A DNA stretch of 64,000 nucleotides from Escherichia coli (GTDB taxonomy: Bacteria > Pseudomonadota > Gammaproteobacteria > Enterobacterales > Enterobacteriaceae), in NCBI RefSeq assembly GCF_024700885.2, contig NZ_CP117016.1; one strand, given 5' to 3'. Every line of letters starts with the position of its first letter. Positions within the stretch are counted from its first letter, which is position 1. The notes below the pieces were generated by a model that saw nothing but the letters and a program-made list of their open reading frames with translations, was not told the origin of the DNA and ran no database searches. The translations under genes and the position numbers were made by a program. Shown in pieces: positions 56,487 through 58,752 of this stretch.

Positions 56487-56619
56487 AACTGACATTTTGC
56501 ATAGGCAGAACGCAATTATGCATATTGCGGTATAATCCCCTTCTTAAAACTGTAAGAACTGCTTGCTAATCCTTGCAGTTTTTGATTATAACATTTTTAT
56601 TTGTTTATTAGGATTTTTG

Positions 56620-58752
56620 ATGGAACTGTTACAGGAACACGGGGCGATACTTAAAGTTGTAATCATGCCTACTACTGGGGAACAAACCATAATCCAAGGT
56701 TTCGATACTGGCCTCCTCAACCCAGAGATATCCAACATTCTTTTTTTATTGGCCAAAACACCAAAAGAAATTAGTGAGATTTTTGTCAATGAAAATGATA
56801 ACTTTCAGCCTACTCTAAGCGGGCTAAATCCTATTTTTTTAATATCTAAAGAAAATCTTGAAAAAATACCAGATATTTATCAAACGCCATTTTGCTTAAT
56901 TTTTTGTGCTAAAGAAGATTTTTCGTATGTTTGTGCTTTAAAAAAACATTTTGCTATACCACCTATAATTTGTTGCAATTCTAAACGCGCTGATCTACCA
57001 CTTAATAAGATTAATAGTATATACTCATTTGATAAGGTGCTCTTCTCTCGGTTGAAATTCATTGAGGATAAAATAAGAAAAAATCACAGTGAAAAGAAAA
57101 TATCAACGAAGTTGAAGCGAAGAGGGGCTTTATTTAATAAATCACCTTGGAGATCGACGCTTAACAATTCAACACTACCCAATGAGTTGTTAATTGAATC
57201 ACTTGGCTATATGCTATCTCCACCAAAAAGAATTAAAGATGGTAGTAGCAAAAGAGAGTTTATAGAAATAATACTTCATAGCGTTGATGCATACACCGAA
57301 TGTTTAAAGGAATTAGATATACCACTTCCAACGGAAGTCTTACTTTTTGCTCCGGGTATGCACTCTTTTTTATATGATAAAAATAATGACTTTTATGAGT
57401 TAATAACGGAAAATTTATCCACAATTGAGAAAAAATTCCTTATTGATGGAGTGTTGAGGAATCCAGGCTATTCTGGAATTAGACTTGATATAAATTCAGA
57501 TAGAAAAGAACTTTTTAAAAGTCCTGCTTTCCGTTACCTCACCTCACTAAGACGAGCTGAAATGCGATTAACAACAGCTGCGATTACTTTATTTAGCATA
57601 AATAAAAAAATCCCAGCAATAAGATTGCCAAATGCAATAAATCATTACTCCAATTATTTGAAAAATCTTGAAGATCTTGCAACTTCTTCTGGGATAAATA
57701 GTGAAGCATTCATCACTAAATCTAAAGCATTCAATACTGTTATTCGAAGAGCCCTTGGTTGCAAGTTGAGAACATATATAAGTAAAAACTATAGCGATTT
57801 GTCCTTTGTTTGTGATGTACCATTGGATTGGATTAGGTTTAATAACATACCTATAATGTTCAGTCATGAGATATCAAGAATAAATGCTACGCCTGGTAAC
57901 GTTCTTCTACAGAGCGCCTCTGCTTTTCCGCGCGTTTTAGTAAAAGCATCTGAGTTGAGAAAGGTTTTAGTTATACGTTCTTTTGAGCCTGATGATCACT
58001 TAAAGTTCATATTAGAGAACGCAATTGAGATATTTAAAAAACAGATGCCAGATCTTGATTGCGAGATTATTGATGTTAGATCGAAAGCTGAGTTTATTGA
58101 TGCTCTAAATCAATATCAAGGTCATATTCTTGTTATGGATTGTCATGGAAACCATGATGGCAATGGGAGTCATGGATGGTTAATAATAGGTGAGGATAAA
58201 GTGGACACTTGGAGTTTGAGAAAAATAGCAAGAATTCCTCCTATCGTAATTCTGAGTGCATGTTTAACATCTGCCCTAAGTGGTTCTCATGCCTCTGTTG
58301 CTAATGGCTTCGTTATAAGTGGTGCATTAAGTGTCATCGGAACATTACTGCCTGTAAATGCGATAGACTCTGCTGTTTTTGTAAGTCGGTTGATCTACCG
58401 GTTTTACGAGTTTCCTTCGACGCTATCTACAAATTTTACACATGTTAATGTAAGGCTTTTTCTTTCTGTTTTTCTTAGGATGTCCTATGCAAGCGATTTA
58501 ATAAGAGGATTTTTATCTGAAGATTTGATACCGAATAATTCATGGAAGAAAGATGCAGTTGATATTAACATGTATATAAACATGCTTCACCATGATTGGT
58601 ATGATTATGTAATTAACAAATTGACGATGTTAACGGGGCTCACGAAAAAAGATGTACTTGATTTTATCGATAGAAAATTATTCATAACCGAAACTATGTG
58701 CTATAGCCAAATTGGATTTCCAGATGCAATCACAATTAGTCTTAAAGATTGA
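56620..58752 (+). CDS. Cargo protein of unknown function with C-terminal CHAT-like (caspase-fold) His/Cys dyad; candidate defence or abortive-infection protease
   Basis: ORF from 56563; likely start at 56620 (MELLQEH) preceded by tagga; strongly AT-rich; hydrophobic strand-His (HILVMDCHG, His codon 58144-58146) and strand-Cys (PPIVILSAC, Cys codon 58261-58263) about 39 residues apart. Confidence 0.65.
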   Translation: MELLQEHGAILKVVIMPTTGEQTIIQGFDTGLLNPEISNILFLLAKTPKEISEIFVNENDNFQPTLSGLNPIFLISKENLEKIPDIYQTPFCLIFCAKEDFSYVCALKKHFAIPPIICCNSKRADLPLNKINSIYSFDKVLFSRLKFIEDKIRKNHSEKKISTKLKRRGALFNKSPWRSTLNNSTLPNELLIESLGYMLSPPKRIKDGSSKREFIEIILHSVDAYTECLKELDIPLPTEVLLFAPGMHSFLYDKNNDFYELITENLSTIEKKFLIDGVLRNPGYSGIRLDINSDRKELFKSPAFRYLTSLRRAEMRLTTAAITLFSINKKIPAIRLPNAINHYSNYLKNLEDLATSSGINSEAFITKSKAFNTVIRRALGCKLRTYISKNYSDLSFVCDVPLDWIRFNNIPIMFSHEISRINATPGNVLLQSASAFPRVLVKASELRKVLVIRSFEPDDHLKFILENAIEIFKKQMPDLDCEIIDVRSKAEFIDALNQYQGHILVMDCHGNHDGNGSHGWLIIGEDKVDTWSLRKIARIPPIVILSACLTSALSGSHASVANGFVISGALSVIGTLLPVNAIDSAVFVSRLIYRFYEFPSTLSTNFTHVNVRLFLSVFLRMSYASDLIRGFLSEDLIPNNSWKKDAVDINMYINMLHHDWYDYVINKLTMLTGLTKKDVLDFIDRKLFITETMCYSQIGFPDAITISLKD

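Follow-up and report, generated by a model that had tools for sequence, protein, structure and literature searches.

Borvo, a single-gene anti-phage system that was named and verified in 2022, is the closest described counterpart of the locus considered here. In Table S2 of Millman et al. (bioRxiv 10.1101/2022.05.11.491447), the entry SG178, 'Borvo', is listed as verified and originates from E. coli 403116, and it comprises a 2569-bp cloned fragment that was expressed from its native promoter and that encodes a 710-aa 'CHAT protease BovA'. Table S22 of the same work places BovA homologues across many unrelated taxa. Borvo is not named in the main text of that preprint, and we found no catalytic His/Cys mutants of BovA in the accessible parts of the preprint and its supplements. 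In the literature, a virtually identical Borvo allele guards E. coli against several phages. The phages T5, SECphi4 and SECphi18 escape the 403116 system by missense mutations in the DNA polymerase, all of which fall in the proofreading (3'-5' exonuclease) cleft (Stokar-Avihail et al., bioRxiv 10.1101/2022.08.27.505566). Expressed by itself, the SECphi4 DNA polymerase is toxic in cells that have Borvo but not in cells without it, and a mutant polymerase relieves this toxicity (bioRxiv 10.1101/2022.08.27.505566); the trigger polymerase of SECphi18 has since been matched to mga47. For five systems, Borvo among them, high-MOI infection in liquid led to collapse of the culture or to growth arrest, and the authors took this to support abortive infection (bioRxiv 10.1101/2022.08.27.505566). 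A 2024 article in Virol J (PMC11348598) still terms Borvo 'poorly understood', and in the literature of 2024-2026 we found surveys and passing mentions only, and no paper on its mechanism or structure.

The window, by which we mean the whole stretch of 64,000 nucleotides of E. coli DNA that was analysed, carries this gene. We hold with great confidence that it is bovA, the Borvo cargo of an Ayreon/cdtI-like prophage inserted in prfC, and that it encodes an N-terminal region followed by a CHAT protease, for which a mechanism is proposed below. The gene is already known and is essentially the published allele. What is new here is minor, namely the invariance of the catalytic dyad, an N-terminal region without a specific structural relative and the varied cargo found at the position of bovA in related prophages.

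The bovA gene and its identity as Borvo

The single gene of Borvo, bovA, occupies positions 56620..58752 on the plus strand, stop codon included, and its reading frame is intact; the assignment draws on the PADLOC BovA profile, the RefSeq start and the identity to the 403116 gene. In a six-frame ORF listing, the longest frame (56563-58752, plus strand) opens with a TTG codon and would yield 729 aa, and the ATG at 56620, which is the start in both RefSeq and IMG, yields 710 aa. The RefSeq CDS of strain M45 (WP_032333474.1) has this same start, the ATG follows an AGGA with a 6-nt spacer when the sequence is read directly, and in the alignment the homologues share an MELLQ start with a nearly invariant M1. 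Because the protein has 710 aa, the residues numbered His528 and Cys567 in the longer frame become His509 and Cys548. The first-pass annotation of this DNA had described an AT-rich gene for a protein of about 710 aa that bears the motifs HILVMDCHG and PPIVILSAC, and it was accurate on each of these points. The motifs lie at ORF residues 521-529 and 559-567, so that His528, Cys567 and their spacing of 39 residues are correct in ORF numbering, the ATG gives the expected size, and the GC content of bovA is 34.0%, compared with 45.2% for the adjacent integrase gene, 41.0% for the excisionase ORF on the other side, 47.4% for the prophage early region and 52.5% for the host flank.

The upstream intergenic region (56487..56619, plus strand) is expected to hold the native promoter, and the fragment of Millman et al. 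begins at 56486. By eye, a perfect -10 hexamer, TATAAT, stands at 56531-56536 and an AGGA Shine-Dalgarno sequence at 56609-56612. Since a consensus promoter scan returned no full sigma-70 -35/-10 pair upstream of bovA, the position of the promoter can only be presumed. Just 3' of the stop codon, at 58785-58826, GGCACAGAGC and GCTCTGTGCC form a perfect inverted repeat of 10 bp that encloses a loop of about 21 nt and lacks a T-run; the terminator scan did not report this repeat. It may terminate transcription or bind a protein between bovA and xis, which converge here.

The identity of the gene as Borvo is carried by profile searches and by comparison with the tested allele. In the PADLOC library, BovA (PDLC03831) is the single match, and it is a full-length one, with E = 1.2e-241 and 802 bits over ORF residues 23-728 and profile positions 3-715 of 720. 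Pfam CHAT (PF12770) matches aa 488-592 with E = 9.2e-6 and partial coverage of the model. A search with these two profiles was a check that the first-pass annotation had proposed, and its choice of Borvo as the family is borne out by the BovA match. In PHROGs, the 729-aa ORF is covered end to end by phrog_34827 (1737.7 bits), a family of unknown function, and RefSeq names the product 'CHAT domain-containing protein' in the 31 E. coli genomes that carry the gene.

The comparison with the tested 403116 allele (IMG gene 2646127138) covers 399 nt from the start of the cloned fragment and residues 1-399 of the protein. Over this range the fragment aligns gap-free to 56486-56884 with 397/399 identical positions (2 mismatches), and the protein is identical at 398/399 residues, N85D being the sole change. 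Given this match in the part compared, the window gene is the type Borvo gene and not a divergent relative, and the suggestion that it might be a diverged member of the Borvo type, or a single-gene system not described before, does not hold. The two genes also agree in length, start, upstream region and single-gene CHAT architecture, and the window protein differs by N85D and possibly by a few further changes towards the C-terminus. Since none of the 31 copies in complete E. coli genomes falls below 99% DNA identity to the window, we infer that the identity to the 403116 allele probably extends over residues 400-710. The features that characterise Borvo are all found here: the BovA profile matches, the gene is nearly identical to the verified one over the compared part, the CHAT domain has its conserved dyad, and the system is organised as a single gene. 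In the window and the related prophages compared, bovA has no conserved partner gene, since its flanks here are the prophage integrase and excisionase and in those prophages it is exchanged as a whole for other cargo.

It is conceivable that the bovA of the window is a non-functional allele, owing either to N85D or to differences in the C-terminal 311 residues. The tested protein was compared over residues 1-399, and relative to the cluster representative P0001 the window protein differs at positions 85, 354, 503 and 643. However, the 710-aa frame is intact and retains the family-invariant columns, the dyad included, as it must by construction of the alignment, from which the window protein was not left out. 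Moreover, residue 85 is a variable column in which another homologue also has D, and strains M45 and MLI114 carry identical DNA, as does Ayreon, an isolated phage. We therefore regard a loss of function as very improbable. Even less credence, indeed next to none, is due to the idea that the gene represents a divergent Borvo-like or an undescribed single-gene CHAT system: taken by itself, the Pfam CHAT match is a weak one, and the N-terminal 390 aa lack a Pfam or specific fold match, which lends the protein a novel look when no defence-specific profile is at hand, but the full-length BovA match and the near-identity to the verified locus over the compared part speak against it.

Architecture of BovA and its relation to other CHAT proteins

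BovA appears to consist of two parts. The N-terminal region (aa 1-392, 56620..57795, plus strand) is modelled as a pair of alpha/beta subdomains and then a helical bundle and is presumed to be a sensor or regulatory module, and the C-terminal region (about aa 393-710, 57796..58749, plus strand) is predicted to be a CHAT, separase-like protease with a caspase fold. The predicted catalytic His509 (codon CAT at 58144..58146, plus strand) lies in the motif DCHG, and the predicted catalytic Cys548 (codon TGT at 58261..58263, plus strand) in the motif LSAC. We found 34 homologues of BovA, ranging from 99% down to 31% identity, 32 of which were aligned with the window protein. In this alignment of 33 sequences, D507, C508, H509 and G510 as well as L545, S546, A547 and C548 are invariant. 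In an AlphaFold model built from the same alignment (pLDDT 82.8, pTM 0.83), strand 503-508 leads straight into H509 and strand 542-546 into C548, as in clan CD proteases, and the fold of the model matches Csx29, separase, gingipain, caspases and metacaspases. A sequence search of the PDB with BovA returned no chain at E <= 1. Judged from sequence and model together, BovA is a predicted CHAT (clan CD) cysteine protease with His509 and Cys548 as its putative dyad. The same reading, a CHAT or caspase-like protease, had been proposed in the first-pass annotation from the two motifs, and the Pfam CHAT match, the invariant dyad and the modelled clan CD fold all agree with it. It had also noted that the N-terminal 450 or so residues bear no recognisable signature and had suggested a structure prediction with a fold comparison of this part. 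The model obtained is a confident one, and the N-terminal 390 aa have neither a Pfam match nor a specific structural relative among solved structures.

One structural counterpart is Csx29, the TPR-CHAT protein of the type III-E CRISPR Craspase (PDB 7y9x, 7y83, 7zoq), which shares 12-14% identity with BovA. Csx29 is also the only NCBIfam match, at 14.7 bits against a cutoff of 300 and thus below threshold. The BovA locus differs from Csx29 in that it has no TPR N-terminal domain, no Cas7-11/gRAMP partner and no nearby CRISPR array, and the activators differ as well, a phage DNA polymerase for Borvo and a gRAMP-bound target RNA for Csx29. Membership in Csx29/Craspase was ruled out on the sub-cutoff score, the missing TPR domain and the missing CRISPR neighbours. 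The SAVED-CHAT effectors of CBASS and type III CRISPR signalling (PDB 8tl0) carry a SAVED cyclic-oligonucleotide sensor, whereas no such domain was detected in BovA, and the neighbourhood of bovA holds neither a cyclase nor a Cas10 partner gene. Since both the SAVED domain and the cyclase are missing, BovA is not a SAVED-CHAT effector. What BovA shares with Csx29 and with the SAVED-CHAT proteins is the protease fold alone. Separase (PDB 9hvy, 5u1t, 7nj0), a eukaryotic cell-cycle protease, and the gingipains (4ief, 4rbm), which are secreted virulence proteases, are unrelated to BovA in their N-terminal regions and in their biology.

Prophage context and an exchangeable cargo slot

The prophage occupies a site in the 5' end of prfC. 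Its left junction, read directly from the sequence, is a 5' prfC fragment of 22 codons (54974..55048, plus strand) that stands just after yjjG, continues into phage DNA and is an incomplete CDS in M45. From 54997 onwards, the right-hand 9 kb of the window are 99.9% identical to phage Ayreon and 98.5% identical to the CDT-I phage cdtI, and the window ends inside the prophage. Upstream of bovA lies a 405-aa tyrosine integrase of the prophage (55269..56486, plus strand; phrog_1, E = 2.2e-75, and annotated as such in M45 RefSeq). On the other side a 64-aa ORF (58860..59054, minus strand) encodes the excisionase (phrog_1553, E = 2e-34), with a second, weaker match to a family of MerR-like HTH regulators (E = 9e-5). 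With these neighbours, bovA is located inside the int-xis module. The first-pass annotation had placed the gene between an integrase and an AlpA-like regulator, the latter term being approximately right. In strain M45 the ORF at 58860-59054 is without RefSeq annotation. Counted from 56486, the 2569 bp of the tested fragment end exactly at 59054 if no indels intervene, so the excisionase ORF was probably inside the fragment from which Borvo was originally described as a single-gene system.

The 2.5-kb bovA region is present in 31/5426 complete E. coli genomes, in each case adjoining the integrase, and it occurs in phage Ayreon with 100% and in the CDT-I-converting phage cdtI with 99.8% identity. 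In a further 313 genomes the match is limited to the 3' end of the integrase gene, and the cargo beyond it varies. In related prophages other genes replace the whole of bovA, and both the integrase and the early genes on the far side of the slot are retained. In strain SEC470 the slot holds Dsr1, a known sirtuin defence protein, and in E. coli O157:H7 strain 146N4 and in Stx2c-converting phages it is filled by a 515-aa protein encoded on the opposite strand. These differing genes after the integrase make the slot an exchangeable cargo position, in support of the earlier remark that bovA sits where a moron or defence cargo would be expected. It also follows from the different cargo in related prophages that the slot is not needed for the phage cycle. 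That the protease might serve the prophage's own cycle, for example by processing a regulator at induction, with the anti-phage effect being incidental, would fit the location of bovA inside the int-xis module and the likelihood that the tested construct also contained the excisionase ORF, but we consider it extremely improbable, as related prophages with the same integration module hold Dsr1 or the 515-aa putative membrane protein instead, Table S22 of Millman et al. lists BovA homologues from many unrelated taxa, and the published trigger is the polymerase of a foreign phage.

The 515-aa protein is encoded outside the window, at 5265-6812 (minus strand) of locus L004 from E. coli O157:H7 146N4 (WP_032355589.1) and at 2046-3599 (minus strand) of locus L005 from an Stx2c-converting phage. 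Searches of PADLOC (E <= 0.01), NCBIfam (E <= 0.01) and Pfam (E <= 10) gave no match, and PHROGs places the protein in phrog_13820, a family of unknown function. On visual inspection of the sequence alone, the N-terminus looks hydrophobic and resembles transmembrane helices. Since the slot is occupied by bovA or Dsr1 in related prophages, this protein is a candidate for an uncharacterised defence or exclusion gene.

Outside the prophage, the window is made up of ordinary accessory E. coli content. This includes an inverse-autotransporter (IatC/intimin-like) adhesin of 1746 aa (575-5815, minus strand), a pentapeptide-repeat protein of 758 aa (8381-10657, minus strand), an 846-aa ORF (19556-22096, plus strand) whose N-terminus weakly matches the acylase PvdQ (52.5 bits against a cutoff of 950), and the hpa cluster for 4-hydroxyphenylacetate degradation (26467-36345, minus strand). 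None of the ten largest ORFs of the window has a PADLOC match. Upstream of rsmC, tRNA-Leu(CAG) genes form a tandem array of three (51606-51928, minus strand), and a single tRNA-Leu(CAG) is annotated at the corresponding position of O157:H7 146N4. Collinearity with strain M45 over positions 1-50000 was ruled out, an ungapped comparison giving 37015 mismatches.

A possible mechanism and its implications

It is possible to envisage how a protein of this architecture could confer the published phenotype. The N-terminal region of BovA would hold the CHAT protease inactive by autoinhibition and would sense the phage polymerase, a complex of the polymerase or a product of its activity. Once activated, the CHAT domain would cleave one or more host proteins, and possibly itself too, and this cleavage would stop growth before the phage cycle is completed. 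Autoinhibition, dependence on the protease and substrate cleavage are presumed in this scheme; the polymerase trigger and the abortive phenotype have been shown in the literature on the 403116 allele. An appealing yet tentative version of the sensing step, to which we would give perhaps a minor share of our confidence, is that the N-terminal 390 aa form a new sensor module that reads the proofreading cleft of family-A phage polymerases or the product of the exonuclease and thereby unlocks the CHAT domain. A less likely possibility than such an N-terminal sensor is that the excisionase ORF, probably cloned along with bovA, has a part in the phenotype published for Borvo.

PADLOC and DefenseFinder would assign the Borvo label to the window gene automatically. 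The first-pass annotation can accordingly be taken as a positive control, in that a genuine defence gene and the right family were picked from raw sequence. For the biology of the system, the locus indicates that Borvo travels as cargo of temperate phages of the Ayreon/cdtI type, in a slot that adjoins the integrase and that in related prophages is home to different defence genes, Dsr1 for example. Should the N-terminal region of BovA indeed be a sensor of the phage polymerase, this would amount to a new mechanism for a known system, and not to a new system.
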